Shown piece by piece: positions 6,960 through 62,583 of a stretch of 64,000 bases of DNA (the first letter of the stretch is position 1; the number at the start of each line of letters is the position of its first letter). Source of the DNA: an uncultured Candidatus Saccharibacteria bacterium (GTDB taxonomy: Bacteria > Patescibacteriota > Minisyncoccia > Phycocordibacterales > UBA918); contig CAYXYJ010000003.1 in NCBI GenBank assembly GCA_964469295.1, forward strand, positions 12,595-76,594. The letters are read 5' to 3'. The position numbers and the translations under genes were made by a program. The notes under the pieces are model-generated. The model did not search any database. It was not told the DNA's origin and saw only the letters and a program-made list of their open reading frames with translations.

Positions 6960-7333
6960 AAATCAATGTTGCTTGCATATACATTCGGAAGTCCGTTTCA
7001 GCCGACTTTCGACACTACGTGCAAGAAGATTTCTCGTTGTGGTTGGATCTTCTTAAGTTGTTGAACGTTAGAGTTTTGGAGGTAATCTCTATTTTTTACA
7101 AGGATCTCTTTACGGGGGAGATCCAGGGTTCAGGTCGTAATGTCTTTTATGAACTGAACTCTGGATCTTCCTGCGCGCCCTCTCTGGGCCTGTCACTATA
7201 GTATGTCCTTTATAATTACTCGTAAAGGACAGACCTGTGAGTAATTGGGGATTACTCGGAAAAACTTTGTCCTTTATGCGCAATAATGTTCCTGAAAGCA
7301 AAAAGAGCCTTGCAATGCAAGGCTCTTTTTGCT
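6960..7333 (+). ncRNA. Candidate ~370-nt non-coding transcript of unknown class
   Basis: Bracketed by the promoter above and an intrinsic terminator at 7300-7330 (followed by TTTTT). It is rich in local stem-loops, for example gtcctttat-aattactcg-taaaggac and gagtaat-tgggg-attactc. Only short low-quality ORFs are present. No tmRNA tag frame or RNase P P4 consensus was found. Confidence 0.3.
7300..7330. terminator. Bidirectional intrinsic terminator aaaagagccttgc-aat-gcaaggctctttt
   Basis: A perfect palindrome flanked by A-run and T-run. It serves xth on the minus strand and the candidate ncRNA on the plus strand. Confidence 0.7.
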
Positions 7334-7375
7334 TCCTGTTTCTACTATTGACATTTATGAGTTCTGTATTTTTAT

Positions 7376-27543: not shown

Positions 27544-28167
27544 ATGGCCAATTCTTCTACCGCTACCCAAGATTTTGTTCCAATCCGTGATATCCAAAAC
27601 GGGATGGTGATTCTTAAAAACGGCCAGTTATGCAAAGTCCTCCTCGCTTCATCCATCAATTTTGCGTTGAAATCAAGTGATGAACAACGAGCTATTTTGT
27701 TTCAGTTTCAAAACTTTCTTAACACGTTAGATTTTTCGATACAAATTTACGTCCAGTCACGACGGCTAAATATCGAACCATACATAGCAAACCTTGAAGC
27801 GCTCGAACCTATCCAATACAACGATTTGATGCGAGTGCAGTTGCGTGAATACATTGAATTTATCCGCACGTTTACCACCGAAGTGGACGTCATGAGTAAA
27901 AATTTCTTTCTCGTTATTCCGTACACGGCGCCCCGTATTGATATTAAAAAAAGCGTTGCTAGTGTACTTGGTCGTGGGAAAATTCTGGAAACAAACACTC
28001 TTGAAGAGCAACGGTTGCAACTTGAACAACGACAATCAGTCGTCGAACAAGGATTAAATCGCATTGGTGTTCGTACCATCGAATTAAATACCGACGAATT
28101 GGTCGAGTTGTTCTATCACATATACAACCCCACTGATGTCACCGGCGCCGCGCCTAAGGTACAATAA
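27544..28167 (+). CDS. VirB4/TrbE-family ATPase, N-terminal domain piece (split gene or frameshift)
   Basis: DFVPIRDIQNGMVILKNGQLCKVLLASSINFALKSSDEQRAILFQFQNFLNTLDFSIQIYVQSRRLN matches the conserved N-terminal region of Gram-positive-type VirB4 proteins. It stops 5 nt before the ATPase ORF, which is in another frame. Confidence 0.55.
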   Translation: MANSSTATQDFVPIRDIQNGMVILKNGQLCKVLLASSINFALKSSDEQRAILFQFQNFLNTLDFSIQIYVQSRRLNIEPYIANLEALEPIQYNDLMRVQLREYIEFIRTFTTEVDVMSKNFFLVIPYTAPRIDIKKSVASVLGRGKILETNTLEEQRLQLEQRQSVVEQGLNRIGVRTIELNTDELVELFYHIYNPTDVTGAAPKVQ

Positions 28168-28172
28168 AATGT

Positions 28173-29969: not shown

Positions 29970-29983
29970 TATACTAGTGACAT

Positions 29984-30634
29984 ATGGCCGAACCGCGCTA
30001 CCAAACTATCGATAGTGATTTTCGTGATGAGCAAGAAAAGCGAACTGGATTTGGCATCAGAAACGCTCAAATGCAAACCGGCAACGTACGCCAACAACCA
30101 AGACAATTAATGGCAGAAGAGGGGAAATCCCCAACACCAACCCGACCAGGGAAAATGAGTGTCCCAAAATCAAGCGCTTTCGGTAGTCCAAAAAAACTGG
30201 CGGTTAATCGAGCCAAAGCAACAGCCACCACCCTCCAAATCGTATTATGGGCCGTTGTGCCATCGTTTTTTGTGTTTATTGTCTGCATTGTTTGTTTAAT
30301 AACCTTTGGTGCCTACAATATGACCCCAACCTGGATTCAAGAAGGGGTAAACAAAGTAGCATATATACTCGGTTGGCAACAAGACGTCCTCCAAACGTTG
30401 TTTTGGATTACGTATATCATACAAATGGTAACGGTCCTTACTATCATGGCTGGTGTTGTTGCTCATTATTCCATTCGGGGTGTCCGGTGCTTGGGGGGAA
30501 GAGAGGCTGGTGTGTTTAAAAAAATGATTTTTGGCATGATGGCTGTTTTTTGTTTTATTCCAGGCACGCCGATACTTGTCATACCAATTTTTGGTACCTG
30601 TTGGATGTTATTGGTTTGCGCCTATCCCAACTAA
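29984..30634 (+). CDS. Hypothetical membrane protein (4 predicted TM helices)
   Basis: An N-terminal ~90-aa soluble basic region is followed by four hydrophobic helices. Confidence 0.4.
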   Translation: MAEPRYQTIDSDFRDEQEKRTGFGIRNAQMQTGNVRQQPRQLMAEEGKSPTPTRPGKMSVPKSSAFGSPKKLAVNRAKATATTLQIVLWAVVPSFFVFIVCIVCLITFGAYNMTPTWIQEGVNKVAYILGWQQDVLQTLFWITYIIQMVTVLTIMAGVVAHYSIRGVRCLGGREAGVFKKMIFGMMAVFCFIPGTPILVIPIFGTCWMLLVCAYPN

Positions 30635-30675
30635 CCACTCGTAGAGTGACTAGTCGATTGCTATACTTATGATGT

Positions 30676-31638
30676 ATGCGATTGTTATGTAGCCTGTTCA
30701 TTTTGATGTGGGTGTTGCCCCTGACTACCAACGCTCAATTTACGCAATCATTGTTTAATGAGCAATTTGCTATTTCGGTATCGCCACAATACCCGAATCC
30801 TGGCGACACCGTCACCGCAACAGTGAATGATTATTCACTTGGTGCTACTGGTGGTTCAATTGCCTGGTTTATTGACGGGAAAGCGGCTACATCAAGCGTG
30901 AACGCTCGATCAATCACCTTTATTGCGGGGGCACCACTTACTCCCACAACCGTGCGTGCTGATTTACGGCTCGGTACCGGGGAAGTATTAACTGCCTCAC
31001 AAACTATCGTCCCACGCTATCTCGATATCATTGTCGAACCACAGACATATGTACCACAATGGTATAGTGGTCGCGCTTTACCCACCAACGGATCTTTGGT
31101 GCGACTTACGGCACTGCTCCACGGCCAAAATGGCCCAGTTGACCATACGGCCTATACGTATACTTGGAAAGTAAATAATAATGTCATTGGCGGTGGTGGG
31201 GTTCGCGGTGGCTACCAAACCACTTACACCGTCCCGATTGGACAATCACACTTGGTATCTCTAGAAATTACCGATACTACCGGTCGGATGGTGAGTAAAA
31301 AAAATATCACAGTCGGTACCGGCGAAGTTGACGCAGTTTTATATGAAGCCAACCAACTCTATGGTCTCGGTCACCGGGCCATCGGGAATAATCGTGTCAT
31401 GACTGGAAATTCATTAACCATTGAAGCCGTTCCTTATAATCTTGATCTGCGAGCGTTATACGGCAACATTTTTACTGAATGGAAAATTAACAATCAAAAA
31501 GTCACTGAAGTGGGTAAAAGTCCTTTTACCATTACTCTCGGTCGACAGGGTTTTGGTGCGGTAACCTTAGGTTTCAAGGTACGAAATCCTGACGCCCTCC
31601 TCCAGGGTGACGAAGTCAGTACGGTATTACAATTTTAA
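30676..31638 (+). CDS. Hypothetical secreted beta-rich protein
   Basis: MRLLCSLFILMWVLPLTTNAQ is a signal peptide; 320 aa. Confidence 0.4.
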   Translation: MRLLCSLFILMWVLPLTTNAQFTQSLFNEQFAISVSPQYPNPGDTVTATVNDYSLGATGGSIAWFIDGKAATSSVNARSITFIAGAPLTPTTVRADLRLGTGEVLTASQTIVPRYLDIIVEPQTYVPQWYSGRALPTNGSLVRLTALLHGQNGPVDHTAYTYTWKVNNNVIGGGGVRGGYQTTYTVPIGQSHLVSLEITDTTGRMVSKKNITVGTGEVDAVLYEANQLYGLGHRAIGNNRVMTGNSLTIEAVPYNLDLRALYGNIFTEWKINNQKVTEVGKSPFTITLGRQGFGAVTLGFKVRNPDALLQGDEVSTVLQF

Positions 31639-31640
31639 TT

Positions 31641-32819
31641 ATGAAAAAGATTTGGCTTTTTATCCTTGGCGGTATCCTCATCATTGTATTGGGAGGATTT
31701 TGGATATACAGTTTTCTCTATGGCAGTACTAGTAACAGTAGTGCTGTCTTTACCGATTTTAATCTCTTTGGTGGCAATGACACCCCAATAGTCACCGAGC
31801 CACTGCCACCACCAGTCACGGAAACACCAACCGTTGATGTCGCCAGTGCACCATTGCGACAATTAACGACGAGACCAGTCATTGGTATGCGGGCGATTAC
31901 TGTTGGTACCACTACCGTTATGCGGTATGTCGAAGCGGGTACCGGACATGTCTTTGCGATTGATTTAACCACAGGCGCCGAAACGCGAATTTCACAAATT
32001 TCGGTACCGGTGGCTAGTGAAGCGGTGTTCAGTCCGAGTGGCCAATACGTCGCCATTCGTTCTGGGTACGATACCACCAACGAAGTGAGTGTTATCAATC
32101 TTGATGCCATGACGCCAACATCTACCGTTTTGCCGTACCAAATTGAAGATGTTACCTTCGGGTACAATAACCAACTGTGGTTTACCGAATTTGTGAGTGG
32201 TAAAACGGTTGGAAAACAGTACGACCCTACCACTCGGCTCACAACAAATTTATTCACTATTCCATTTACGGCCGTCACCATTGAATGGAGTACCAGCAGC
32301 AGTACACCGCACTACGCGTATACCAAACCAGCGCCAGATTTTATTGGGTATGGCTACGAAATTAAAAATGGTGGCATCGTGCGCCTACCCTATAGTGGCT
32401 ACAATGTACGACTTTATAGTGTCAACGCTGGACTGGTTATTACCAAATCAGAAGGGGTAAATGGCCAAATAGCAAGCTATTTCTATCATGGTGATGATAA
32501 CGGTAGCCGATCAGTCTATCCAATTTTGGGCCACGAAAAATGTGTGTCCCTGACTCGAACCGGAGTATTTTGCGCCACCAATGACAATACGTATCAAAAC
32601 AGCACTCAACTCACCCGCTGGAGCATGGGGGTATTGTCAAGTTCTGACACCTTGTATCAAATTGGTTTCAGCGGATCGGCACAACGGATATTGGAATTAA
32701 AAACGGAAACTGGTCGAGATATTGATGTCATGAATATGGACAAAACAATCGACGGGAAAATGGTATACTTTACCAACGCCAACGATAAAACCCTGTGGGT
32801 CTATGACATCGATAATTAA
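31641..32819 (+). CDS. Hypothetical N-terminally anchored extracytoplasmic protein
   Basis: KKIWLFILGGILIIVLGGFWIY is an anchor followed by a beta-rich domain. Directly follows the previous gene (TAATTATG). Confidence 0.4.
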   Translation: MKKIWLFILGGILIIVLGGFWIYSFLYGSTSNSSAVFTDFNLFGGNDTPIVTEPLPPPVTETPTVDVASAPLRQLTTRPVIGMRAITVGTTTVMRYVEAGTGHVFAIDLTTGAETRISQISVPVASEAVFSPSGQYVAIRSGYDTTNEVSVINLDAMTPTSTVLPYQIEDVTFGYNNQLWFTEFVSGKTVGKQYDPTTRLTTNLFTIPFTAVTIEWSTSSSTPHYAYTKPAPDFIGYGYEIKNGGIVRLPYSGYNVRLYSVNAGLVITKSEGVNGQIASYFYHGDDNGSRSVYPILGHEKCVSLTRTGVFCATNDNTYQNSTQLTRWSMGVLSSSDTLYQIGFSGSAQRILELKTETGRDIDVMNMDKTIDGKMVYFTNANDKTLWVYDIDN

Positions 32820-33945
32820 CCGCGGTACATTTTTTGTAGCTGGCCTCATTACCATTATCTGGTGTGGTTTTTTTACTGTAGCTTTGGCTGCTGACTATGT
32901 ACCACTCGTGAATATCCCGGCGGTCGCCAACCCCAACAACATCAACGACTATATTAACGCGTTATATAATTTATCGATTAGTATCGCGGCCTTGATTGCG
33001 GTGGTCAAGATTGTTATCGCTGGTGCCAAGTGGATGTTTGGAAGTACTTCGATTAGTAGTATTCAAAGTGCGAAACAAGACATTCAAAATGCGTTAATTG
33101 GGTTGTTGATTATTATTGGTGCCGTGTTGATTCTAAATACTATCAATAGCGATTTGACCAACCTCACCATTTTTGATGAAAGTGATAGGGTAGTGGTAAA
33201 TGATACGCCGTCCAATGGTTTGTTTGTCACTATGGATCAAATAAAGGCAGCTTGTGAAGAAAATCCTGAGGCTATGGATTGTAGCCTGGAAATACGTTGC
33301 AATGACAATGACATTGGTAACTTCATTTTTGGTAGCGCGTTTTGGGGAAATATGGAATATATAACTAATCCCAACGATATTAGCTTAAGTTGTGGAGTGA
33401 TTTGCAAAAACATCGGTGGATATATGGATTACGGCTTGGCAATAGACGGAACAGACGCAAAGTGCCATATCAGTAAAACTTTAATGAACAATTTAATTAG
33501 CGACTATTTTGAAAAATTAGTGACAGATCAATGCTCATCTGGACGGGTTGATGGTGAAATCTGTCAGATTGAACTTTGTAGTGAACACGACTTAAACAAT
33601 AATACCTACAATGGAAATAGCCAACAAGATTTTAGTAGATGCGAAGCAGAATGTCTAGAAGAAAGACAGGGCTCTTATTTTGACACTCGTAGTGGTGCTT
33701 GTATATTTACGGGTGATTATTACCTGACCGAGGAAGAATGTTCGGAACGCGTTCATATGACCTGGTCTGACGAAGAAAATGTTTGTTATGACCAAACCAC
33801 GACTCAAAGCATTGCGTGTGATTTCTTTGAAAGTACTGGTACCTATGATTGTAGTATAGCGAGAGGCGAGTGTATTGATAATACTGATGTACCAGGAACA
33901 CCAGTTACCGCTGCCGACGGGCGATCTATTTACTGTGTACAGTAG
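32803..33945 (+). CDS. VirB2/TrbC-like pilin-type module fused to a ~260-aa Cys-rich extracellular domain
   Basis: Signal peptide ending ALA-ADY, then two hydrophobic helices (LSISIAALIAVVKIVIAGAKWMF and ALIGLLIIIGAVLILNTI). This is the classic T4SS pilin topology in the first ~125 aa. A domain with more than 20 Cys follows (CEENPEAMDCSLEIRCNDND...CIDNTD...). Overlaps the upstream gene by 17 nt. Confidence 0.4.
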   Translation: MTSIINRGTFFVAGLITIIWCGFFTVALAADYVPLVNIPAVANPNNINDYINALYNLSISIAALIAVVKIVIAGAKWMFGSTSISSIQSAKQDIQNALIGLLIIIGAVLILNTINSDLTNLTIFDESDRVVVNDTPSNGLFVTMDQIKAACEENPEAMDCSLEIRCNDNDIGNFIFGSAFWGNMEYITNPNDISLSCGVICKNIGGYMDYGLAIDGTDAKCHISKTLMNNLISDYFEKLVTDQCSSGRVDGEICQIELCSEHDLNNNTYNGNSQQDFSRCEAECLEERQGSYFDTRSGACIFTGDYYLTEEECSERVHMTWSDEENVCYDQTTTQSIACDFFESTGTYDCSIARGECIDNTDVPGTPVTAADGRSIYCVQ

Positions 33946-37354: not shown

Positions 37355-38449
37355 ATGAAAGTAACGGTCAATCAACAAGAACTCATCAACACCCTTGAAC
37401 TCTTAACACGGGTGAGTACCAAACACGTCACCTTACCTGTGTTGCAGTGTGTTCATATTAAAACGTTTGATACGAAAATAGTTTGTACTACCACCAATCT
37501 TGAAATTAGTATTGAATCACCAGTAACAGCAACCGTAATCGAAGCTGGTGTGGTAGCGGTCTACGCACAAACTTTATTACAGTCAATTCAATATAATACC
37601 CAAAAAGACATCACCTTAACGGCAGTTGATGGGGTGTTAAAAATTGAAAGTGGGCGAAGTGTTACAAAAATTAATACAATGGTGGCTGATGATTTTCCGA
37701 TTATTACTCACCTTGAAACCACAGGGGTGATGGTAAAAAGACAAACATTTGCTCTTGGTATTAAAACTGTTGCTTTCGCAGCGTCGGTATCATCTATTAA
37801 GCCAGAATTAGGAAGTGTCTTTATTCAACAAAAAAAAGAACATTCCCTTACCTTTGTAGCGACTGATTCATTTCGTTTAATGGAAAAAACCGTGCCACAA
37901 CAAGGGGTGATATTATCACAATCGCTTCTCGTTCCACAAAAAAATGCGATTGAATTAGCGCGGGTGTGTGAGGTGTTAACGGAAGATCCTGAACTTCTGG
38001 TTACTGATAATCAATGTGCTTTACGGTTTCCGAATGGGGTGTATGTTATTTCTCGCTTGGTAGCAGGAACTTTCCCTGATTATGAAGCAATTATTCCAAA
38101 AGAATATACCACTCATGTAACAGTGTTAAAACAAGACTTGGTGCAGTGTTTTAAAAAGACACAAATTTTCTTAAATAAATTTATGCAGGTGACTCTTGGA
38201 GTGTCTGATGGATCTTTGTTAGTATCGTCTCAAAACGGTGAATTAGGTACTACCGAAGATGTTGTGCGTGTGGATACTGAGGGATCTCCGTTAACACTTA
38301 ATTTTAATCAGCAGTACGTTCTTGATCCACTTTCACATATTACCGACGACAGTATTGTTTTACATTTTGCTGGGATTGGCAGACCGTTGGTATTAGGAGG
38401 GGTGGCTGATATATCTTTGCGGTATTTAGTGATGCCGATGAATCGATAA
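37355..38449 (+). CDS. dnaN: DNA polymerase III beta subunit (sliding clamp)
   Basis: 364 aa with three-domain clamp organisation. N-terminus MKVTVNQQELINTLELLTRV. Position immediately after dnaA. Confidence 0.9.
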   Translation: MKVTVNQQELINTLELLTRVSTKHVTLPVLQCVHIKTFDTKIVCTTTNLEISIESPVTATVIEAGVVAVYAQTLLQSIQYNTQKDITLTAVDGVLKIESGRSVTKINTMVADDFPIITHLETTGVMVKRQTFALGIKTVAFAASVSSIKPELGSVFIQQKKEHSLTFVATDSFRLMEKTVPQQGVILSQSLLVPQKNAIELARVCEVLTEDPELLVTDNQCALRFPNGVYVISRLVAGTFPDYEAIIPKEYTTHVTVLKQDLVQCFKKTQIFLNKFMQVTLGVSDGSLLVSSQNGELGTTEDVVRVDTEGSPLTLNFNQQYVLDPLSHITDDSIVLHFAGIGRPLVLGGVADISLRYLVMPMNR

Positions 38450-38453
38450 AATA

Positions 38454-38495
38454 AGAATAAAAGAACGGTGGCCATGGCCACCGTTCTTTTATTCT
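38454..38495. terminator. Bidirectional terminator gaataaaagaacggtggcc-atg-gccaccgttcttttattc
   Basis: A perfect palindrome between convergent dnaN and tyrS. Confidence 0.75.
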
Positions 38496-39727
38496 ACATT
38501 AATCAACACTCGATCTTTTTTACCGCGTCGTAATACGGCCAATCCTGAGGCGTATGATTCCAGGTTTTTCTCGCTATCAGTGATAATAACTTCATTAATA
38601 GCCACCGCACCGTTTTGAATAAATTCTCGCGCCGCTCGTTTACTGTCTGCTAACCCAACACTGATAAGGGTATCTGTAAGCGAATTATTTGCTGATAGTG
38701 TGACTGCTTTGCCACTTTTTGTGACAGCGGCAATAGTTTCGGCAGAAAGTGAAGAAATGGTAGTAGTGCCAAATAACACATCAGTCACAATCTTGGCGGT
38801 TATTAAGGCTTCCTCACCATGAATAAAACGAATTACCTCGTCCGCCAGTGTCCGTTGTGCGAGACGAAGACTCTTGTCATTGGTATGAGTTTCGGCAATA
38901 GCCGCAATATCATCAAGTGATAAGAATGTAAATAATTTTAGATAATCAACGACACTTTCATCGCTTGTATTAAGCCAGAATTGGTATAATTCGTATGGAG
39001 TGGTTTTGTGATCGCTTAACCACACCGCATTTCCCATACTTTTACCAAATTTTTTACCGGTGGCTTTATCAACGACCAGTGGCATCGTTAAGGCGTAGGT
39101 AGTGTCTCCGGTGACTCGACGAATTAAATCAATACCCGCGACCAGATTGCCCCACTGATCAGAACCGCCAATTTGTACGTCAGCGTTGTGAGTTTGGTGT
39201 AAATGTAAATAATCGTAGGCTTGTAAAAGAGAGTACGAAAACTCGGTATACGAAATACCATTTTCACTTTCCATTCGCTTCGCTACCGATTCTTTTTTAA
39301 TCATCGCGTTAACGGTAAAGTGTTTTCCGACATCACGCATAAAATCCAACGCCGATAGTTTTGACAACCATTCATAATTATTTACAAATGTGATGTCGCC
39401 GGTACTGACGGCACGGATGCCCTTTTCCATGACGGCGCATTGATCGGTGATTTTTTCTACTGACGCTAATTCCCGTTCAGTGTCACGACCAGAAGGGTCG
39501 CCAATCAGGGCTGTCCCGCCGCCAAGTAAGAGGATGACTCTATGTCCGTCATTCATAATGTGGTTTAACAACATAAACGGCACTAAGTTTCCGATATGAA
39601 TCGCATCTGCTGTTGGGTCGATTCCTAAATACACCGTCCGTTTGGTACCGTCTAATATGTCTGCGACAGTCGGGGCTGAATATTGGTAAATAAAGCCTCG
39701 AGCGAGTAATTCTTCGGATAAAGTCAT
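38489..39727 (-). CDS. tyrS: Tyrosyl-tRNA synthetase
   Basis: HIGNLVPFMLL (HIGH-class), KFGKS (KMSKS), and a C-terminal S4-like domain; 412 aa. Confidence 0.9.
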   Translation of the reverse strand: MTLSEELLARGFIYQYSAPTVADILDGTKRTVYLGIDPTADAIHIGNLVPFMLLNHIMNDGHRVILLLGGGTALIGDPSGRDTERELASVEKITDQCAVMEKGIRAVSTGDITFVNNYEWLSKLSALDFMRDVGKHFTVNAMIKKESVAKRMESENGISYTEFSYSLLQAYDYLHLHQTHNADVQIGGSDQWGNLVAGIDLIRRVTGDTTYALTMPLVVDKATGKKFGKSMGNAVWLSDHKTTPYELYQFWLNTSDESVVDYLKLFTFLSLDDIAAIAETHTNDKSLRLAQRTLADEVIRFIHGEEALITAKIVTDVLFGTTTISSLSAETIAAVTKSGKAVTLSANNSLTDTLISVGLADSKRAAREFIQNGAVAINEVIITDSEKNLESYASGLAVLRRGKKDRVLINVE

Positions 39728-53434: not shown

Positions 53435-53593
53435 ATTTATATTTTATATATAGTATACGCGTAATTATGCGTGCGGTCACGTCGGTGGTGAAAATTGGTC
53501 ATGATTAAGGAATCAGTGTTAAAGTACACTCGTAAAAACCAAAAACCTGCATCATTGCTGACGCAGGTGGTGGGTGGGGGCTAGCCCCCACCC

Positions 53594-53941
53594 TTAGTTC
53601 GTGGTCGTTGCCGGTTTCGGAAGCAGGTCGGGAACCGGTTCGTAGACGTCGAACCGGAAGCCGTCGCGGGTGGTTTGTCCAGCGAGGCGGAAGGTAGCAA
53701 TCCTCCCGTCTGCCATCGACCCGCGAGTCGGCGGCAGGGTAATGTTTCCGCAGACGTCGGCGACGACCGGGATTTCGATCAGATCGAAATTGGGGAAGGT
53801 ATCGCCAGCCGGGGCGAGAAAGGTGTACTCGGCCGGCTCGTTCCAGGTGCAAGCGGCGCTGTCCGCGAGGGTCAGCGCCGCGGCGGTTTCGGTGCTGATG
53901 GTCGCAGCCATGAGCACCGTGGTCAGAAGCAGATGCTTCAT
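53594..53941 (-). CDS. Small secreted hypothetical protein in a GC-rich (~62-65%) island
   Basis: MKHLLLTTVLMAATISTETAAALTLA is a signal peptide. GGAGG RBS 5 nt upstream of ATG (53939-53941). Terminator hairpin gggtggggg-ctag-cccccaccc at 53564-53587. Surrounding DNA is ~35-45% GC. Two conserved Cys. Confidence 0.55.
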   Translation of the reverse strand: MKHLLLTTVLMAATISTETAAALTLADSAACTWNEPAEYTFLAPAGDTFPNFDLIEIPVVADVCGNITLPPTRGSMADGRIATFRLAGQTTRDGFRFDVYEPVPDLLPKPATTTN

Positions 53942-54050
53942 TTGGTCCTCCAAGAGCTCGCTAGACCATCGCGGACACCACAGGTGTGGGCCGGACTAGC
54001 GATTGAACATATTATATACCATATCCTAGACATTTTGTAAAGTACCTTGT

Positions 54051-55025
54051 TTGGTGTGCATAAATATGGCGATATTTTACGCCGTAATTTCGTATACTTA
54101 CGGTATGGATATCGATACATCAGACGCAGTGATTTATGAAAAGAAACAGCTCCCTAAAGGGGTAAAAAAATGGGGATTTATTATCATTTGTACCGTTGGA
54201 GTAGTCGCTGCGTTGTGGTATGGCTGGCGGTGGAATAGCGAACGGGAAATCACCGCTTTGCAGGAAGGTCTCTCACTGGTTGAAGTACCCCCAGAGATGA
54301 TTCACCAGCAACCGGTAGGATATTTGGTGTATGAAGCACCGGATAATTTTTTACCTAAATCACTGGCCGAGCAATTTAACATGATGCCGGGTGAAACTAC
54401 GAACCTAGCGAGTGAAGACGATGAAGAATTGTCTCTCGTGCGTGATAATGACGATGCTCCAATAATTGCGAAAACTACTCCTGAATTGCCAAAACTGTGG
54501 TGGATGCGTGATATCCGTAACAATCTCGATATTCAGGTTGCTGCTGACGACGTCCGGCTAGAAACAACCAATAATTGGTCTATTGAAAATGGTGCCGTGA
54601 TGCGTCGTAACGATGACGGCACGGTGGCGTCGTATGTGCGCGAGGGCGACAATACGCCATTGACGCACTCACTCATCACATCCTCATATGATGAGAGTTA
54701 TATATTTGTAGCCAATCAGCAAATGAATACGCTTACGGTGTATGCGGTGGATCCAGAAAGACCACTCTTGCCGTTGGTCTATACGACGACAGTCGCGCAT
54801 GGCGATATTGTATCAATAACAACCGCACCGGATTTAAATCGGGTAGTCATCGTCACGACCAATAAAATCGGCACTTTCCTTTCGTATTATGATGCGTACA
54901 GCGATCGGGTGATTAAACAAGAACAGTTAGCAGATATGGCCACTCCGGTGACATTATTGGATTGGGTAACAATTAATCCTGTCGCTTCAGATTTACTTGA
55001 AGTAATTGAAGTGGAAGGAAATTAA
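54051..55025 (+). CDS. N-terminally TM-anchored extracytoplasmic beta-rich protein (hypothetical), module copy 1
   Basis: KWGFIIICTVGVVAALWYGW is an anchor. Stop overlaps the start of the giant gene (TAATG), indicating translational coupling. Confidence 0.45.
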   Translation: MVCINMAIFYAVISYTYGMDIDTSDAVIYEKKQLPKGVKKWGFIIICTVGVVAALWYGWRWNSEREITALQEGLSLVEVPPEMIHQQPVGYLVYEAPDNFLPKSLAEQFNMMPGETTNLASEDDEELSLVRDNDDAPIIAKTTPELPKLWWMRDIRNNLDIQVAADDVRLETTNNWSIENGAVMRRNDDGTVASYVREGDNTPLTHSLITSSYDESYIFVANQQMNTLTVYAVDPERPLLPLVYTTTVAHGDIVSITTAPDLNRVVIVTTNKIGTFLSYYDAYSDRVIKQEQLADMATPVTLLDWVTINPVASDLLEVIEVEGN

Positions 55026-57922
55026 TGTATGACTATTGTATGCGTATTTTAACTGAAAAATTTTCCGTTGCCTTTATTATCATGGTGCTGCTGGTACCTT
55101 ACATTACCTATGCATATCCAGCGGGAACACCTTCTTGGGATGATTGGGATGGTGATGGTAATCGATGGACTCATGGTGAAGATAATGATGGTTGGACTTC
55201 GTCTGGAGGTGGTGGTGGAGGTGGAGGTGGGGGGAACAACAATAATCCTCAAACTGTTGAAATTGATAGAAATCTCGGTACAACAGCTAATGTGCAAACA
55301 AATCGTCCGGGCGCAGATTACGTTTTGAGTCATACTCAAGTAATCAATGGTAGAACTTACCAAATATACGATTATACAGGAACCGTACGACCAGTGTTAC
55401 CAGGACAATCAAATCCTAATCCAGCCGGTTTTGTTGCTGTATTAATAAATGATAATAATGATAATGGTCACAGTTGCTCAGCATCGCGTCCCAATCTGGT
55501 GATTGAAGATATTTACCTAGTCCGTACTTCTTCTTCGAGCGAGGATGTGGATGAAGTTAATCTCGGTACAGATATCGAATATCGTCCGTATGCAATTGTA
55601 CGTAATACTTCATGTAAAAGCACAAATAGTTCTGGAAATAATCTTAGCTTACCAAGTGTCGCAGCGAGCGGTTCATTTCCTGTACGACTCCGCATTGATT
55701 ACAACAGTACTGATACGGCCAATCCATCATATGAGTACACCGAACAAATTGGTTTTGTTGGGCCGCTTGGGGGAAACATGAGCATGGCGGTAGCTTTTGA
55801 TCCAGTGACATTTACGAGTTTAGCGAGTCATGTATTTCAGGTGACTGCCGACCCTATTGCCAATCAGCAAAGTTTTGAGACCTGCACGGGCGGTGTGGGG
55901 TGTATCCGGGAAAGTAATGATACTGATAATACTCGCACTGAAACGTTCCGCACAACGCCACCAAGTGTGACGGTTGGGTCGTTTGTGTGGAGCAGTAATG
56001 TGCGTTTAAGTAGCAGTAACAACTATTGGACGACCTGGGATCATTTGACGACACCAGTTCGTGATATGGTCGCCCGGCCGCTCGCCAGTAGTGATCACGA
56101 AGTGGGAATTTATTGGATTGGGAATAAGGTTAATCTCGACCAGTGTACCGGTGTTGGTATTAATAATGATTTGCGTAATACCGCCGATTGGTGGCGAGTG
56201 AATTGGACGGGTTCTAACCATAGTGAGTCAAGATTTTGGGCTGGCCGCAGAGCTAGTGGCGCGTATCCATCGTGGCCAATGGGCTTTTGGTCGGGTGGTG
56301 ACAATTGGGACATTCGGCCGGTGGGGGGGACGATGGAGCAAAAATTAGCGTTTGCTGATAATAAAATCTTTTGGCGGGGTAGTGAGCAATACCATCGGAC
56401 GATGGCAGTGTTTGTGAACCGTGGCTTCCGTCAGGCGGTAGCGGCGGGTAATTATCATGAATATACCGTAACCTGTCCGGCCTATAATGGATCGACGGTA
56501 TCTGATACCCATATCGTCCGGAATGGGACGAGACCGGGGGTGACGTTACCAGTGTCTCTTCAGCCAAATTTACCCGACGTGACAGTGACAGCGGGAGAGG
56601 TGGTAGACCGAGTGCCATTTACGATTCAGAATAATGGGGCGGAAGCCATTTCGGGGATGACCTACACCCTCACTATTAATGGAGTAGCGGTGCATACGGT
56701 AGCGAGTAGTTCACGGGTCACCGCTGGCGGATTATTATCTACTCGTCCGGTAGTGAATTGGACGGCGCCAAATAACGCCCGAAATGTACCCATGGAGTTG
56801 TGCGTGAATCACCCGGGGCGAGCGACGACAACTCCAATCTGTGATCGAGGGGTGATAACAGTTACGGCTGTTCCGACTCACCCATTATCGTGCGATACAT
56901 TCACCATCAGTGACAATACATTAGAAGCTGGCCAAACCGCGACGGTGACTTGGTCAACCAGTAACGCTACATTTGCTACACTACAAGATACGTTAAATGG
57001 CACAACAATGATGGTGGGTGCTAGTGGAACTAGTCCGGCTATCATCTTCAGTCAGAACGCCAATCTTCGTCTCACTGCTTTTCGCGGAGCTGAACGACAA
57101 TCATGTCCAGACATTTTTGTTCAGGTGACTCCAGCGACCAACCCAGATCTCGCGGTAGCAAATTTCACAATTTCTACCTGTACGGATGAAGTGGCAACCA
57201 ATTGCCCAACTACCACTTGGCAGGCAACGGTGCAAAACATTGGTATTACCGCTACCCAGACAGCGCCATATGTACTGCAACGTCGCGTCGGTCCGGCGAC
57301 CTGGACAACCGTAGCGACGGGTAATATTCCCGCATTAGCCATCAGCGCGTCAACGCAAATCAGTGGCACTGTACGCAATATTGTTCCTGGTAATTATGTT
57401 TGGCGGGTGATCGTCAACGAGCCAGAACGGTATCCGGAAGAAACTCGGGCGAATAATATTAGCAATCCGGTTAATTTCATCATCACGCAAATACGAACAC
57501 CGCAATGTAGCGATGGTGATGATAATGATGGTGACGGCTATACCGACCGTAACGATTCTGGCTGCCGTCCCAATCCTAATGAACCGGAAGGACCAACAAA
57601 CACCTACGATCCCGACGACGATTCCGAAGCCGTCGTCGATAATCCCCAAATTACTATTACGGCCAACCCTGCTATTATCCGGTATGGTGATACGGCGACA
57701 ATTGAGTACAGTATTAGTAATCCTAATCCACTGACGTGTACCATGACTGGTCCCGGTATGCCTACAACCATTACCTATCCAGGCAATGTTGGACCAAGTG
57801 AAGCGTTGCAAGGAACGCATATTTCTGCACCACTGACGAGTACCCAAACATTCACTATTACCTGCGGCGCTACTCGAGCTCAGACTACTGTGGAAGTGAT
57901 TCCACTCGCACAGGAAATTTAA
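55025..57922 (+). CDS. Giant secreted surface protein (965 aa) with Gly10 linker, beta-sandwich repeats, CARDB-like domain and Ca-binding-like CSDGxDNDGDG motif, module copy 1
   Basis: N-terminal hydrophobic signal; SSGGGGGGGGGGNNNN; CARDB-like PDLAVANFTISTC...NIGITAT...; PQCSDGDDNDGDGYTDRNDSGC. The last ~33 aa are encoded by sequence identical to the 3' end of 59739..62519. Confidence 0.55.
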   Translation: MYDYCMRILTEKFSVAFIIMVLLVPYITYAYPAGTPSWDDWDGDGNRWTHGEDNDGWTSSGGGGGGGGGGNNNNPQTVEIDRNLGTTANVQTNRPGADYVLSHTQVINGRTYQIYDYTGTVRPVLPGQSNPNPAGFVAVLINDNNDNGHSCSASRPNLVIEDIYLVRTSSSSEDVDEVNLGTDIEYRPYAIVRNTSCKSTNSSGNNLSLPSVAASGSFPVRLRIDYNSTDTANPSYEYTEQIGFVGPLGGNMSMAVAFDPVTFTSLASHVFQVTADPIANQQSFETCTGGVGCIRESNDTDNTRTETFRTTPPSVTVGSFVWSSNVRLSSSNNYWTTWDHLTTPVRDMVARPLASSDHEVGIYWIGNKVNLDQCTGVGINNDLRNTADWWRVNWTGSNHSESRFWAGRRASGAYPSWPMGFWSGGDNWDIRPVGGTMEQKLAFADNKIFWRGSEQYHRTMAVFVNRGFRQAVAAGNYHEYTVTCPAYNGSTVSDTHIVRNGTRPGVTLPVSLQPNLPDVTVTAGEVVDRVPFTIQNNGAEAISGMTYTLTINGVAVHTVASSSRVTAGGLLSTRPVVNWTAPNNARNVPMELCVNHPGRATTTPICDRGVITVTAVPTHPLSCDTFTISDNTLEAGQTATVTWSTSNATFATLQDTLNGTTMMVGASGTSPAIIFSQNANLRLTAFRGAERQSCPDIFVQVTPATNPDLAVANFTISTCTDEVATNCPTTTWQATVQNIGITATQTAPYVLQRRVGPATWTTVATGNIPALAISASTQISGTVRNIVPGNYVWRVIVNEPERYPEETRANNISNPVNFIITQIRTPQCSDGDDNDGDGYTDRNDSGCRPNPNEPEGPTNTYDPDDDSEAVVDNPQITITANPAIIRYGDTATIEYSISNPNPLTCTMTGPGMPTTITYPGNVGPSEALQGTHISAPLTSTQTFTITCGATRAQTTVEVIPLAQEI

Positions 57923-58084
57923 TCACAATTACCTAACATCAACCGCCTGTTCTGGAGAGAACAGGCGGTTGATGTTATTCGTTCATGAGTAAGAGATTTC
58001 GTAAGATCAAAGATATAAAAATCACACCAATGAAAGTGTGATAGTGGGGGTGCGGGCGGTGCGAATGCATCGCCCGCAATGCGC

Positions 58085-58396
58085 TTAGAGCAGGCACTCA
58101 TCGCGCTGCGAGAGCGCGATGTAGCCCTTGACCTCACCGTCTTCTTGAAGAGCGAAAACGATGGGATGGCCATAGTGACCCCAGTCTTCGATGGCCGCCG
58201 CCGCAGCCCAGGCCATTTCTTCGGTGTCGAAGATGACATGGGTCCGGCCACGGCCGTCAACGAAGTCTTGAGACAGGGCAACGATATGCCCCATGTCACC
58301 GGCGGTCAGACACCGCACCGGGGCATCGGCAGCCACGGCGGTAGCAAAGGTAGCGGCGAAGAGTGTCGCCACCATGGCAGTGAAGGCGTTATTCAT
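58085..58396 (-). CDS. Small secreted hypothetical protein in a second GC-rich island
   Basis: MNNAFTAMVATLFAATFATAVAADA is a signal peptide. AGGAG RBS 7 nt upstream. Local GC is far above flanks. A GC hairpin lies downstream at ~58058-58080. Unrelated in sequence to the 53594 gene. Confidence 0.5.
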   Translation of the reverse strand: MNNAFTAMVATLFAATFATAVAADAPVRCLTAGDMGHIVALSQDFVDGRGRTHVIFDTEEMAWAAAAAIEDWGHYGHPIVFALQEDGEVKGYIALSQRDECLL

Positions 58397-58642
58397 CTTC
58401 TTCTCCTAGGAACTCGTCGGATCGCTGTAATAGCTATAAAGAAATTACCCGACGATTGAACTTATTATATAGCACACATGTATTGATTTGTAAATACTGC
58501 ACTTATATATTGAGGTGTTTTGGTAGTTATTTAATTTTGTCACGGACAGCGCAGATTGAAAGTGGATAATGATTATATTGGGGAGTCATAATCGTTATAC
58601 TGGAGTTAATAACACTAACAGCGTTAATTCCATTACTATATT

Positions 58643-59737
58643 ATGAACCCCGAAACTGATGCCGCATTTAGCGGCGAACGAATCAAACTCACTCCAGGCG
58701 AACGTTTTCGTCAAATTGTCATGGTGGTGGGAATAGTTTTGCTCGTCATAGTTGGAGCCAGTAGTTGGTATGTGTGGCACTGGCAACAGACACAGCCAGT
58801 TACGGTGATTAGCCATGGTCTCGAAGAGACCCAGGTGCCAACTAAAAATTTTCTAGTTGGGCAACTGTATTTTAGTGCTATCAGATCTGATGATGACACT
58901 GCTGCACCGTATATATACAAGAAAGATTTCACTGACGATTATATAAATCGAGCATTTGATTTTTCTGCTCTTTCTTATGCGTACAGCAATACACAATACG
59001 ACACAATGGTGACATATATTAATGAATCAGTTGATCCTGATGGACTGCAATTAATTTGGAGAGATCGGCAGACGGGAGAAACTGGGACGCTACCTCGCCT
59101 TACGGGATATTCGGAAATGGAATTAACGGTTTCACCAGATAATATTTATTACGCCTATTCTTATCTTGAAACTGCAGCTAAAAATCCTTCCCAACTAACT
59201 GATTGGGATATAGTACTGATAAATTCTGATACGTTAAAAATTACGGTGGTTAACGGAGCCATGGAACCGCACTTTACTGCTAATGGAAAGTATTTGTACT
59301 ACATGAAAACTGACGGTATTTACCGATATGATATTGAAACAGAGACTCACACATTGGTAAGTAATATCTATCAAGATCTGACTCCAATTGATGATTACAC
59401 TATTTCTGATAATGGTAATGTGCTGGTATTTACTTCACCATCACTGCGTACTATTTCGATACAAGAATTAGATGCAGAGGGGCACAGCACTGAAGTTGGC
59501 GCTGAAGTCGGGGTCGCGGTGCGGTATCGTCAACCGATGATGAGTCCGGATGGAGAAACGTATATTGTGATGGTCGCTAGAGATAACGATTTTGATACTA
59601 CGACACAAACGTATCATACGGTTTTCGGCGAGATTCGTTCATTGTATGGCAAAACAGTTCTTGATACTGTGCCATTTACGGGATTTGTACCTGGTTCGGT
59701 ACAGTTAAATGAATGGAGAGATGATATCCAAAATTAA
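58643..59737 (+). CDS. N-terminally TM-anchored beta-propeller-like protein (hypothetical), module copy 2
   Basis: FRQIVMVVGIVLLVIVGASSWYVW is an anchor. It is rich in Y/D/T repeats (PD40/TolB-like impression only). Stop TAA is 1 nt before the next ATG. Confidence 0.45.
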   Translation: MNPETDAAFSGERIKLTPGERFRQIVMVVGIVLLVIVGASSWYVWHWQQTQPVTVISHGLEETQVPTKNFLVGQLYFSAIRSDDDTAAPYIYKKDFTDDYINRAFDFSALSYAYSNTQYDTMVTYINESVDPDGLQLIWRDRQTGETGTLPRLTGYSEMELTVSPDNIYYAYSYLETAAKNPSQLTDWDIVLINSDTLKITVVNGAMEPHFTANGKYLYYMKTDGIYRYDIETETHTLVSNIYQDLTPIDDYTISDNGNVLVFTSPSLRTISIQELDAEGHSTEVGAEVGVAVRYRQPMMSPDGETYIVMVARDNDFDTTTQTYHTVFGEIRSLYGKTVLDTVPFTGFVPGSVQLNEWRDDIQN

Positions 59738-59738
59738 T

Positions 59739-62519
59739 ATGAAAAATCACCATATGAAACTTAAAATATTTTTTTTCGCCATCTCAGCCATTATTGTGCT
59801 TAGTGTTACTCCATCAAACGCACTCGCTACTGTTGGTGGCCCAACCGAAGTAGGACAAACTGGGTCGGTAACAAATGACGGTTACTTTCAAAATTTTGAT
59901 ACCGGACGAGAACATCTCATTCAATCATCATACGATCAGGCTCGTGATATGGGGAATGTGATTGCGGCAGCCACGGGTCATAATGTCGTAACAGTTTTTG
60001 CGTTGCAAAATGCACGTACTGGAGCCATTCAAGGTTATATTGTTGTGACTCGGTATGTGCCACCAATCGCCACGAGCGGCAGTCGGGATGATGACACTTG
60101 CGATAGTGCTCCCGGTGTAGGATTTAGAGACGATTCAATTAGATTTATCCGTATTACTGATGGGATGCCGGTTGATCGAACGGCGTTATTAACCAATGTA
60201 CCGTATCGCGTGACCGCGGGTGTACAAAACAGTAATTGTTGGCCAACCAATGGTATTTCTCGGTACCACTATAATGACAGCGCGTGGTATACCGGTACGG
60301 AATTTGTCCGTATTAATAATCCGGCTCAATCGTATGGGCAACCACCAGCTAACCGTGGAAACACACCGTATCGTAACCAATTACCGTTTGGTGAAAATGG
60401 TACATTTCCAGTGGAAATCCAAATTGATGAAGGTGACAATGGATCAGTGGATACACGAATGAGCATTAATCAAGTCGGTCCACTTGATGGACAAAGTGGT
60501 TCTAAAACGCATATGATTGCTACAGATAGCAATCTCGACACCCCACGGCAATATCCCTATGAACATTTCTATGTGCACCCGAATACGCTTGATGTGCCAA
60601 CCGGGTACACTACCTTAAATATAAACTCACTCGATCCAACCGAGGGGACTTTTACGCATTCAATGTGGCGATCGCTCCCGTTTGCAGATAGTCGTTGGCG
60701 TATGGGTCCTGGGATAACGGTGATTTCACCAGTGGTGGAATTTGATACAGCCACCACTGGTCGGGTGCGGGCGTACACTGATGTGGGTTGTGGCGGATCA
60801 TTTGGGTGCATCGTTGGGAGTTCAGATGGACAAGGGTTGGATTTTCGAGTGCTTGGTGCACCACAAATAACATTGGGATCGTATATTATTGGGAATAACA
60901 CAATTACTGACGTCAGTACGCGTGAACGACGAGACGTTACTGCCGGACAACAAATTGGTTTGTATTGGAGCGGGAGCAATGTTGATGTAAGTACCTGTAC
61001 TGGTCGAGTGCGATTAGAAAATGGCAGTACCGACAACGATTTTACGGCAGTTGGTGATACGACTGGCCTGACCGCCAATCAGTTGTTACTTATCCCCGCT
61101 AATACCAGTCGTATTGATTCCACTATTACTGAACCGACGACACAATACCGAACATATACCATTACCTGTGGCGTGGCTGGTGGTGGAGATACTGTGTCTG
61201 ATAGTATTATTTTATCCAACGGACCATTATCAGCTACGGTGCAACTTGACCCATTACTGGCAAATATGAGTGTGGCGTATCCCGATACCATCACTTCTAT
61301 TCCGTTTCGTGTACACAACGCTGGGACAATTGGGGTAAATAACTTTACCTATACCTTCACCATTGATGGCCAAACGTATCCGTCTGGGGCGTTTGCTGGT
61401 AGTTTACCAATCGCTACTAATTCTGACGTTTTGTATGGTGTAGTTAATTACCAAGTACCGTTGCGTGATGATGATACGTATACCATCCCAATGCGAGTCT
61501 GTGTGCAGCGTCCACAAATGACTACTGAACAATGCGACAATGCGACAATTACCGTGACCGTGGGGAGTACTATAGCTTCAGAATGTAGCGATGGTATTGA
61601 TAATCTGGATGAGGAAGATACTCTGGCCGATGCGGATGATCCGGGATGTTGGACCAATCCAACTGACCCAATGACGTATTATCCACAAGACACTTCCGAA
61701 ACGAATAATCGGGTTGATACAGCAGTGCCGGATTTGTTGGCAAGTGTTCGACCAATTGATGACTGTACCACCAATACTACTACCTGCTCGATGACGTATC
61801 GCGCTCGTATCAGTAACCTTGGTACCGCCACACCGGTAGGCGAACCGATTCCATATGTTTTTGAACGTCGTCTACGACCAACTGGTGCGTGGCAAACGAT
61901 ACAGACAGGAACCATAATCAATACTATCAATCAAGGAAATTACCGTGATGTCACATTCACTGAAACGTTGACTCTCGGTAATTACGAAGTGCGGGCCCGA
62001 GTAAATCAACCAACACCAAACAGTAATCTTCGAGAAACCATATTCACGAATAATACGAGTGGTCCGGTAGCGTTTACCGTGATGAGGGATGCTATCCCGC
62101 AGTGTTCTGATGGAGTGAACAATGACGCTCCCGAAGATACGTATATCGACGCCGCCGACCCTGGTTGCTGGGCGAGTTCAACCGATTCAACAACATATGA
62201 TCCAAATGATACTACCGAGTCGTTAGTTGTCGCGCCAACCATTACTATTTCGGCACGGCCACAAATCGTACGGTACAACGACACTGCTTCAATTACCTAC
62301 ACTATCAGAGGGGTGAATCCGGTGTCCTGTCAATTGACTGGTCCCGGTATACCGACAGCATCCATATCGTATCCAACGGTAGCCTCTGGCATAACCAATA
62401 CCATTACGGGAACGCACATTTCCGCACCACTGACGAGTACCCAAACATTCACTATTACCTGCGGCGCTACTCGAGCTCAGACTACTGTGGAAGTGATTCC
62501 ACTCGCACAGGAAATTTAA
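59739..62519 (+). CDS. Giant secreted surface protein paralog (~927 aa) with CARDB-like domain and two CSDGxDN...DPGC motifs, module copy 2
   Basis: Start set at MKNHHMKLKIFFFAISAIIVLSVTPSNALA (signal peptide). The track start 59709 overlaps the upstream gene. CARDB-like PDLLASVRPIDDCTT...; motifs SECSDGIDNLDEEDTLADADDPGC and PQCSDGVNNDAPEDTYIDAADPGC. C-terminus identical to 55025..57922. Confidence 0.55.
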   Translation: MKNHHMKLKIFFFAISAIIVLSVTPSNALATVGGPTEVGQTGSVTNDGYFQNFDTGREHLIQSSYDQARDMGNVIAAATGHNVVTVFALQNARTGAIQGYIVVTRYVPPIATSGSRDDDTCDSAPGVGFRDDSIRFIRITDGMPVDRTALLTNVPYRVTAGVQNSNCWPTNGISRYHYNDSAWYTGTEFVRINNPAQSYGQPPANRGNTPYRNQLPFGENGTFPVEIQIDEGDNGSVDTRMSINQVGPLDGQSGSKTHMIATDSNLDTPRQYPYEHFYVHPNTLDVPTGYTTLNINSLDPTEGTFTHSMWRSLPFADSRWRMGPGITVISPVVEFDTATTGRVRAYTDVGCGGSFGCIVGSSDGQGLDFRVLGAPQITLGSYIIGNNTITDVSTRERRDVTAGQQIGLYWSGSNVDVSTCTGRVRLENGSTDNDFTAVGDTTGLTANQLLLIPANTSRIDSTITEPTTQYRTYTITCGVAGGGDTVSDSIILSNGPLSATVQLDPLLANMSVAYPDTITSIPFRVHNAGTIGVNNFTYTFTIDGQTYPSGAFAGSLPIATNSDVLYGVVNYQVPLRDDDTYTIPMRVCVQRPQMTTEQCDNATITVTVGSTIASECSDGIDNLDEEDTLADADDPGCWTNPTDPMTYYPQDTSETNNRVDTAVPDLLASVRPIDDCTTNTTTCSMTYRARISNLGTATPVGEPIPYVFERRLRPTGAWQTIQTGTIINTINQGNYRDVTFTETLTLGNYEVRARVNQPTPNSNLRETIFTNNTSGPVAFTVMRDAIPQCSDGVNNDAPEDTYIDAADPGCWASSTDSTTYDPNDTTESLVVAPTITISARPQIVRYNDTASITYTIRGVNPVSCQLTGPGIPTASISYPTVASGITNTITGTHISAPLTSTQTFTITCGATRAQTTVEVIPLAQEI

Positions 62520-62534
62520 TCGATAAAGAGCACA

Positions 62535-62583
62535 ACTATAACCGAAGAGCCGCCGGGCTTGCCCGGCGGCTCTTCGGTTATAG
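62535..62583. terminator. 49-nt perfect palindrome ctataaccgaagagccgccgggc-ttg-cccggcggctcttcggttatag
   Basis: Lies between convergent giant gene 2 and ruvA. Shares the 22-nt core gccgccgggcttgcccggcggc with the hairpin at 50151-50174. Confidence 0.8.

Follow-up and report, generated by a model that had tools for sequence, protein, structure and literature searches.

Background

Why should a genome of the CPR/Patescibacteria type carry, within 64 kb, two short stretches of markedly GC-rich DNA, each with a gene for a small protein that looks secreted, and each at the same place in a duplicated gene module? Attachment to other microbes is the way of life of CPR bacteria, and to our knowledge almost nothing is known about the proteins that they use at that interface. 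The DNA analysed here, a stretch of 64,000 nucleotides called the window below, has this pair of GC-rich genes, which we call island 1 and island 2, and also a VirB4/TraG-like and VirB2-like cluster. A sequence-only reading had taken the islands as two independent insertions of foreign composition, and their shared slot as a hot spot for the acquisition of small secreted effectors or inhibitors. Are the islands foreign, what do they encode, and how did they come to the same place? The features that bear on these questions are collected in Table 1.

Table 1. Positions of the features of island 2, island 1 and the surrounding module genes in the window.
Feature	Position	Strand	Basis or remark
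-35 hexamer TTTACA	58489..58494	minus	read from sequence; the same TTTACAAA upstream of island 1 (54034-54041) and in L051
Extended -10 TGCTATATAAT	58464..58474	minus	spaced 17 nt from the -35, as is the TGGTATATAAT of island 1
Conserved TTCAATCG block at predicted transcription start	58453..58460	minus	identical in island 1 (54000-54007) and L051
5' leader stem-loop TCGTCGG...CCGACGA	58414..58455	minus	MFE and centroid folds; ends 6 nt before the ribosome-binding site
Shine-Dalgarno AGGAG	58403..58407	minus	6 nt 5' of the ATG
Predicted signal peptide, residues 1-22	58331-58396	minus	read from sequence
CDS of 103-aa protein	58085..58396	minus	ORF list; codon-position composition like that of the island-1 gene; protein annotated in NCBI record
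Shadow ORF, 126 aa	58079..58459	plus	mirror frame of the minus-strand gene; without Pfam match
GC-rich hairpin TGCGGGCGGTGC/GCATCGCCCGCA	58051..58078	minus	right after the stop codon; 12-nt arms, 92% complementary, 4-nt loop
CCCCCAC motif	58044..58050	minus	between the two 3' hairpins; also in island 1 and L051
Intrinsic-terminator-like hairpin ATCACAC...GTGTGAT, then TTTTTATATCT	58011..58042	minus	stem 58042-58021
364-aa N-terminally anchored protein, candidate beta-propeller	58643..59737	plus	PD40 E=0.0013; divergent from island 2
936-aa surface protein of module 2	59709..62519	plus	sub-threshold CARDB-like matches, QCSDGxNND motifs
965-aa paralog in module 1	55025-57922	plus	37% identity to the 936-aa protein
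Island-1 unit, counterpart in module copy 1	53535..54041	minus	promoter, leader, CDS, GC hairpin, terminator
Island-1 CDS, 115 aa	53941-53594	minus	ortholog in L051
Island-1 GC hairpin	53572-53593	minus	inverted-repeat search
Island-1 terminator	53568-53545	minus	counterpart of the island-2 58042-58021 stem

Composition of the islands

The GC content of positions 58044-58425 is 61-63%, against a mean of 44.9% across the window. Measured in 300-nt windows, it reaches a peak of 0.63 at 58011-58460, about 4 standard deviations above the window mean (0.449, sd 0.046). In the whole 64 kb only island 2 and island 1 (53560-53995, or 53471-54050 by 300-nt windows) exceed 58% GC, and the elevation over the flanks on which the sequence-only reading was built is real. 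The difference extends to codon usage. GC3 is 0.69 in the gene of island 2 and 0.78 in that of island 1, while in the 43 other sizeable ORFs it lies between 0.31 and 0.59. The gene of ribosomal protein S20 has a GC3 of 0.35, and so the bias of the islands is not accounted for by translational selection of the kind that acts on highly expressed genes. When a compositional filter (GC3 exceeding the genome value by 0.22 or more, with A3 under 0.13) is applied to the window, exactly the two island genes pass. Applied to other low-GC loci, about 250 kb in all and mostly from CPR genomes, the same filter finds only one gene of a similar kind, to which we return below (L025), and one spurious match.

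So sharp a local change of composition in metagenome-derived sequence could in principle come from an assembly chimera, or from contaminating GC-rich reads joined to the contig. We find this hardly credible here, since a separate Logan assembly of ERR2586216 spans both junctions of island 2 with 100% identity over 1184 nt, the junctions of island 1 recur in a different organism and sample, and the promoter and terminator, which are of native type, fit the island exactly.

A gene-like unit on the minus strand of island 2

What does the island encode? The sequence supports a gene-like unit on its minus strand, with a predicted promoter, a leader, a ribosome-binding site, a hydrophobic N-terminus and tandem terminators. 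The extended -10 element was missed by an automated promoter scan, which demands a T at position 6 of the hexamer and a distance of 16-18 nt from the -35. The AGGAG ribosome-binding site and the GC-rich hairpin downstream had both been pointed out before, and both are found, the first at 58407-58403 and the second just past the stop codon. Read in this way, island 2 is a complete monocistronic unit with its own putative promoter and terminator, and it is probably expressed. The E. coli ompA and B. subtilis aprE leaders are 5'-terminal stem-loops that stabilise the mRNA. They resemble island 2 in having a stable 5' hairpin upstream of the ribosome-binding site of a gene for an exported protein, the 5' end of island 2 being a predicted one. 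The hairpin sequences, however, are unrelated to those of the islands and the analogy is one of function only; by this analogy the island stem-loop may stabilise its mRNA.

Is the open reading frame a real one? Its length is uninformative in this respect, because 35% of the shuffles of island 2 stay free of stops for 104 codons or more. Better evidence comes from the translation start signals together with a codon-position composition of coding type: G1 is.48, G2.15, A3.08 and C3.44, a profile nearly identical to that of the island-1 gene (G1.35, G2.14, A3.09, C3.48). Thus island 2 is likely to be a protein-coding gene, and the 103-aa product with two cysteines described in the sequence-only reading is the one that we also find, at 58396 to 58085. 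The earlier choice of the minus strand holds as well. The plus-strand ORFs at 58079-58459 and 53675-54040 are exact mirror frames of the island minus-strand genes, and they meet no stop because TTA, CTA and TCA codons are missing from those genes. They were rejected as real genes, being shadows of a sort that is usual in GC-rich coding sequence.

The protein and its relatives

The protein starts with MNNAFTAMVATLFAATFATAVAADA and has its cysteines at positions 29 and 101. A hydrophobic run covers residues 4-22, with an 11-residue Kyte-Doolittle mean of up to 1.7, and A20-V21-A22 followed by A23 fits the -3/-1 rule. The N-terminus proposed before as an Ala-rich signal peptide is present, with this hydrophobic run and AVA|A site, but as read from the sequence the predicted cleavage falls after residue 22 and not after residue 25. 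The n-region MNNAFTAM, moreover, has no Lys or Arg, and with it lacks the positive charge looked for in Sec/SPase I export; the island-1 protein has Lys2 in its n-region. With this qualification, the island-2 protein would be exported by the Sec route. The mature part would comprise about 78-81 residues of about 8.6 kDa and be acidic (pI about 4.6), and because one cysteine lies near each end of the protein, a disulfide between Cys29 and Cys101 joining the termini is plausible. Structure prediction, proposed earlier as a check, yielded AlphaFold2 models for both island proteins at low confidence (pLDDT 50 for island 2 and 44 for island 1), and a Foldseek comparison of the island-2 model with the PDB gave no fold match better than E=1.

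The island-2 protein is an orphan. In about 15 billion proteins, searched both by a word-indexed method and by exhaustive phmmer, it found identical copies only, namely that on the Logan contig and that on an NCBI contig of 92.6 kb, where the 103-aa protein is annotated. Three weak phmmer matches to Fn3, WD40 and Cna_B repeat proteins were dismissed as artefacts of summed repeats, and the best sequence match in the PDB, a redesigned RRM at E=0.01, is not credible. Neither Pfam nor NCBIfam offered a family at E<=1, and JGI metagenomes, IMG/VR, plasmids and phages yielded nothing for island 2, as the same scans of metagenome, viral, plasmid and phage sequences yielded nothing for island 1. Exact look-ups of the 103-aa, 364-aa and 115-aa proteins returned none on record. 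An equivalent look-up of S20 led to a strain with 99.4% identity (GCA_035907295.1), whose contig ends before the island. The literature was searched for similar islands, and nothing specific was found.

The ortholog of island 1

For island 2 no ortholog was found in the collections searched, unlike for island 1. The latter has its orthologous locus in a related organism, on a 938-bp ENA contig (L051) that shares 74% DNA identity with the window over 969 nt. The Mur-ligase neighbour on that contig is 88% identical in protein and the island-1 protein itself is 73% identical in amino acids. How has the gene evolved between the two organisms? The differences at positions 1, 2 and 3 of the minus-frame codons number 23, 16 and 51, a pattern which shows that the plus-strand mirror frame of island 1 is not coding. 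By the Nei-Gojobori method dN is 0.188, dS 0.935 and dN/dS 0.20; the Mur-ligase fragment has a dN of 0.096 and a dS of 1.20. Island 1 is a real protein gene under purifying selection, and with a dS of about 1 it is older than the split from the L051 organism. Its leader is identical to that of the ortholog at 61 of 67 positions, against 254 of 347 for the CDS, and so the leader is constrained more strongly than the synonymous sites.

The GC3 of island 1 is 0.78 here and 0.73 in the ortholog. If the gene were a GC-rich newcomer, should it not have drifted toward the native composition in the meantime? We used a crude two-state model of GC3 decay over about 80-100 codons, in which the Mur-ligase fragment served as a clock and the relaxation was about 0.47 per lineage. 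Free decay to the native GC3 of 0.42-0.47 would then require an ancestral GC3 above 1. For differences between strong and weak bases (G/C against A/T) at synonymous third positions the model predicts 0.37-0.40, and 0.25 is observed. The model suggests that the GC-richness of island 1 is maintained and not decaying, although with an equilibrium GC3 of 0.56 it would accommodate a donor with GC3 of about 0.95. The GC content of both islands is probably maintained.

Folding of the island RNA

The islands are also strongly folded. Compared with dinucleotide shuffles, the CDS has a folding z of -5.3 in island 2 and -5.8 in island 1, and the whole island-2 transcript reaches -7.3; in the same test 62 control windows average -0.32 (sd 1.45), two loci among them going as far as -4 to -5. 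The excess is kept under codon shuffling (z -4.3 in island 2 and -5.3 in island 1) and also under permutation of synonymous codons (-2.6 and -4.2), a test in which the mean of 16 native gene segments is 0.04, the sd 1.22 and the minimum -2.04. In the L051 ortholog it is weaker (-2.3 and -1.3), and likewise in the L025 gene (-2.4 and -2.5).

Might island 2 then be a structured non-coding or dual-function RNA, with the ORF as a by-product of GC-rich sequence? GC-rich islands often mark RNA genes in AT-richer genomes, and besides the folding values of the CDS and the transcript this idea can draw on the ORF length, which is not significant. Still we judge it improbable. The twin island 1 evolves as a protein gene, with third-position changes dominant and the low dN/dS given above, its structure is weaker in the ortholog, and in the two-sequence alignment double changes occur in only 6 of 124 predicted pairs. 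In island 2 itself the ribosome-binding site and the ATG are well spaced, the start resembles a signal peptide and the codon profile is that of island 1. Rfam gave no match in the islands, whether the gathering threshold or a limit of E<=1 was applied; the sole hits were spurious microRNA matches on a terminator palindrome, which were discarded. We treat the strong folding of the mRNA as a secondary property and not as evidence for a non-coding RNA.

A tandem module with a shared regulatory frame

Island 2 was said to occupy the equivalent slot of a duplicated module, and the gene map bears this out. A small gene on the minus strand, a membrane protein on the plus strand and a protein of about 950 residues on the plus strand follow one another in the same order and orientation twice in tandem, at about 53535-57977 and about 58011-62560. 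How similar are the copies? Between the large proteins the identity is 37% in the C-terminal halves, and the 364-aa protein is barely alignable with the 324-aa membrane protein of module 1 (E=6e-5 over 44 residues). With the neighbouring module proteins only 20-37% identical between the copies, a small paralog that can no longer be recognised is to be expected, the more so for a protein whose evolution is faster than that of a housekeeping gene. In agreement with the earlier reading, the two island proteins are not similar to each other (BLASTP E=1.9; hhalign probability 0.3%).

Over their final 113 nt the two large genes are 98% identical, which indicates gene conversion between them. Gene conversion thus does act between the modules, and the likeness of the two island promoters could stem from it.

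A scan of genome contigs with the large proteins returned only distant matches, in the region of the QCSDGxNND motifs, and distant relatives of the large proteins were found among low-GC genomes in Saccharibacteria, Peribacteria and Nomurabacteria MAGs. The 364-aa protein matched itself only.

The non-coding parts of the two islands are far more alike than their proteins. Both promoters read TTTACA-N17-TGnTATATAAT, that is, TTTACA, 17 nt and TG(G/C)TATATAAT. The start region GTTCAATCG is identical in both islands and its TTCAATCG core is kept in the L051 ortholog. A 22-nt block of the -10 and start region, TGSTATAKAATAWRTTCAATCG, agrees at 20 of 22 positions in the two islands and has no further occurrence in the window. 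In both leader stem-loops the 5' arm begins in the start block and the 3' arm ends in ...CGA, the stem TCGCTAGTCC/GGTCTAGCGA of island 1 being the equivalent of the island-2 leader stem. In both units 6 nt follow the leader stem, and after them come a GGAG-type ribosome-binding site and an ORF with an export signal. At the 3' side both have, in order, the GC hairpin after the stop codon, CCCCCAC and an AT-richer hairpin with a T-run that is scored as a terminator; the shared CCCCCAC is a 7-mer in two units and could be due to chance. Given this non-coding frame and the tandem layout, we infer that the two island coding regions are paralogs.

Origin of the islands

Is there a scenario that explains the position, the frame and the composition together? 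The one that we prefer, with a probability of roughly 55% for the whole, is that island 2 is a self-contained gene for a small Sec-exported protein, duplicated along with its module, and that its GC-richness is old and has been held. Island 2 would be the leading gene in copy 2 of a three-gene cell-envelope module that stands in tandem. The module would consist of a small exported protein, a membrane-anchored candidate beta-propeller and a surface protein of about 950 residues. The small-gene unit would have been duplicated together with the whole module; its regulatory frame, namely promoter, start block, leader stem-loop, context of the ribosome-binding site and double terminator, would have stayed conserved, and the fast-evolving coding part would have diverged beyond recognition from that of island 1. 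The GC-rich, C3-rich and A3-poor codon usage would be old and held in place, possibly in connection with a strongly folded, stable mRNA. Since a tandem duplication of the three-gene unit brings the two small genes to the same slot in a simpler way, no hot spot is needed.

The main competitor is a version of the earlier proposal, in which GC-rich ORFs of a donor, perhaps the bacterial host of the episymbiont, were captured or swapped independently into the conserved promoter-leader-terminator slot of each copy. It would account well for codon usage that is atypical and alike in the two islands (A3 0.08-0.09 beside the high GC3), and for proteins that are unrelated in sequence between conserved flanking regulatory blocks. 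The CCCCCAC common to both 3' boundaries, and a similar island beside a surface-protein gene in another CPR genome, would fit it too. However, no donor homolog of either protein was found among the 15 billion proteins, metagenomes, plasmids and phages. No direct repeats flank the islands, the closest tRNA lies at a distance of 6.5 kb, and the ORFs beside the islands are the module genes and the Mur ligase, with no recombinase or mobility gene among them. The GC boundary lies at different points in the two leaders. The dinucleotide signature, which the earlier reading had wished to see compared with candidate donor taxa, is no outlier: in composition-normalised distance, set against 670 native windows, island 2 is at the 90th percentile and island 1 at the 68th, a comparison of low power at 380 nt. 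Moreover, island 1 was in place before a split of dS about 1 and has not decayed since, and tandem duplication already accounts for the shared position. We therefore regard independent acquisition as rather unlikely, and two independent foreign insertions at a hot spot, as first proposed, are not supported, the two units having promoter, start block, leader ends and terminator layout in common.

In the model of Lawrence and Ochman, compositionally atypical genes are reportedly those that were horizontally transferred, and their composition is ameliorated gradually. Island 2 is like such genes in its GC and GC3, which are far above the genome norm, and in forming a short block of the size of a gene. 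The islands differ from them in that they have no mobility signatures or donor and stand in a native, duplicated regulatory frame, and island 1 differs further in that it is present in a diverged relative with a GC3 that seemingly does not decay. An integron gene cassette is a promoterless small ORF with an attC imperfect inverted repeat, in an array next to intI. The foreign-looking small ORF of island 2, followed by an inverted repeat, recalls such cassettes. Yet the islands have their own putative promoter and T-run terminator and do not form an array of one orientation, and their stems are simple and near-perfect, with no attC-like core sites on reading.

The case has a more general side. 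A sharp GC island can outlast a speciation event while its regulatory signals are of native type, and thus atypical composition alone does not mean recent transfer. If the maintained GC-richness is true, it would point to selection on the mRNA itself.

Function and similar islands

What might the protein do? As a working hypothesis, drawn from gene order and the joint duplication of the three genes, the product of island 2 would be exported and serve the envelope module next to it as an accessory or a partner. It may be linked in function to the surface proteins beside it, as secreted partner, accessory or inhibitor. In this sense the locus is a compact candidate set for testing, with two orphan exported mini-proteins that each go with a candidate beta-propeller and a giant surface protein. 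Island 2 would be one more orphan gene for a small secreted protein in a symbiont genome, set apart by a composition that is unusual and seems to have lasted long.

In CPR/Saccharibacteria, small proteins with signal peptides have been described that are encoded in arrays next to type IV secretion genes (McLean et al. 2020, PMC7427843). Their members are like the island-2 protein in being small, in carrying an N-terminal export signal, in having no homologs beyond close relatives, and in lying near envelope or host-interaction genes in a reduced genome. Island 2, unlike these arrays, is a single gene that does not stand beside secretion genes and has a codon usage far from that of the genome, and we know of no sequence relationship to them.

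Are there other genes of this kind? A Saccharibacteria MAG of the same mean GC (L025, 45.5%) has a 61% GC island in which the minus strand encodes a protein of about 205 residues with a signal peptide. The gene is provided with a leader hairpin and a terminator. Its GC3 is about 0.7, its A3.08 and its C3.40, and it lies directly upstream of, and divergent from, a gene for a 1260-aa surface protein carrying the QCSDGVNNDGDG motif. The protein is not similar to either island protein. It is a possible third case of a similar kind, at present an anecdote. One may speculate further that the islands are no scars of transfer but members of a small class of CPR genes with a GC- and hairpin-rich CDS that is actively maintained over long times, or else that a conserved 'socket' of promoter, leader and terminator in these modules captures unrelated ORFs and leaves no recombinase signature; to this we give little credence. 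In the former case, selection on mRNA structure or stability, or a local GC-biased process, may be the cause, and such islands would be markers of secreted proteins that are highly expressed, evolve fast and act as partners of giant surface proteins where symbiont and host meet. GC-rich stretches seen in two other loci, a dprA gene in L050 and cytoplasmic-looking paralogs beside tRNAs in L014, are unrelated phenomena.

Ends of the large genes and the island-1 leader

The two large surface-protein genes of the tandem module are 98% identical across their last 113 nt (window 57812-57924 vs 62409-62521), and the last 36 residues of the proteins are identical, while the remaining protein is at most 37% identical. 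This difference points to recent gene conversion, or to a C-terminal signal under strong constraint. The first of these genes is followed by a long near-perfect palindrome (see table), which is probably a bidirectional terminator; its only Rfam matches were spurious ones to microRNAs.

The 5' leader of island 1, a GC-rich gene for a small predicted secreted protein, is 91% identical between the window (53942-54007) and the orthologous locus on a 938-bp ENA contig of a related organism (L051, 64-128), and it folds as a stem-loop immediately upstream of the ribosome-binding site. Since this identity is kept despite near saturation of synonymous sites in the same orthologs (dS 0.94), and since the stem-loop stands just before the ribosome-binding site, the leader may have a regulatory or stabilising role. 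As for RNA folding more generally, control windows 7201-7512 and 38201-38512 match the islands in how extreme their z-scores are, with values of -4 to -5 for each strand. The latter window covers the convergent ends of two genes and may therefore contain terminators.

GC-rich stretches elsewhere

Is there any similar island in other genomes? The Saccharibacteria MAG locus L025 carries one, whose gene encodes a predicted secreted protein of about 205 aa, adjoins a 1260-aa surface-protein gene in divergent orientation, and has a third-position bias resembling that of the window's islands (GC3 about 0.7, A3 0.08, C3 0.40). Two ORFs in a Magasanikbacteria MAG (L014) each adjoin a tRNA gene, with local GC of 50-62% in a 34% GC genome; both lack a signal peptide, and they represent a different phenomenon. 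Within the window, no Pfam match was found for the ORF holding the third-highest GC stretch.

Coordinates of the features discussed
Feature	Location	Remarks
Palindrome	window 57934-57977	CAACCGCCTGTTCTGGAGAGAACAGGCGGTTG; directly 3' of first large gene
GC island	L025 (CAYUOR010000001.1) 6141-6915	minus-strand gene; 61% GC in 45.5% GC genome
Third-highest GC stretch	window 26721-27020	57% GC; within 223-aa ORF 26390-27061
Paralogous small ORFs	L014 6407-6892, 7248-7589	common motif FLDEC..QDWS..LW
VirB4/TraG P-loop ATPase	window 28173-29969	type IV secretion-like cluster
TrbC/VirB2-like protein	window 32803-33945	Pfam match below gathering cut-off
Gene downstream of ribosomal protein S20	L052 (GCA_035907295.1) 387-1256	window from ~63511 onward

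Other features of the window

A type IV secretion-like cluster lies at 27544-33945, in which hypothetical proteins with hydrophobic N-termini flank the VirB4/TraG and TrbC/VirB2-like genes; it is similar to the Saccharibacteria arrangement reported in PMC7427843. On contig L052, the gene after S20 shows precomputed hits to the domains MliC (lysozyme-inhibitor) and META. This contig is 99.4% identical to the window, an identity indicating that public data hold a second strain of the window's species.
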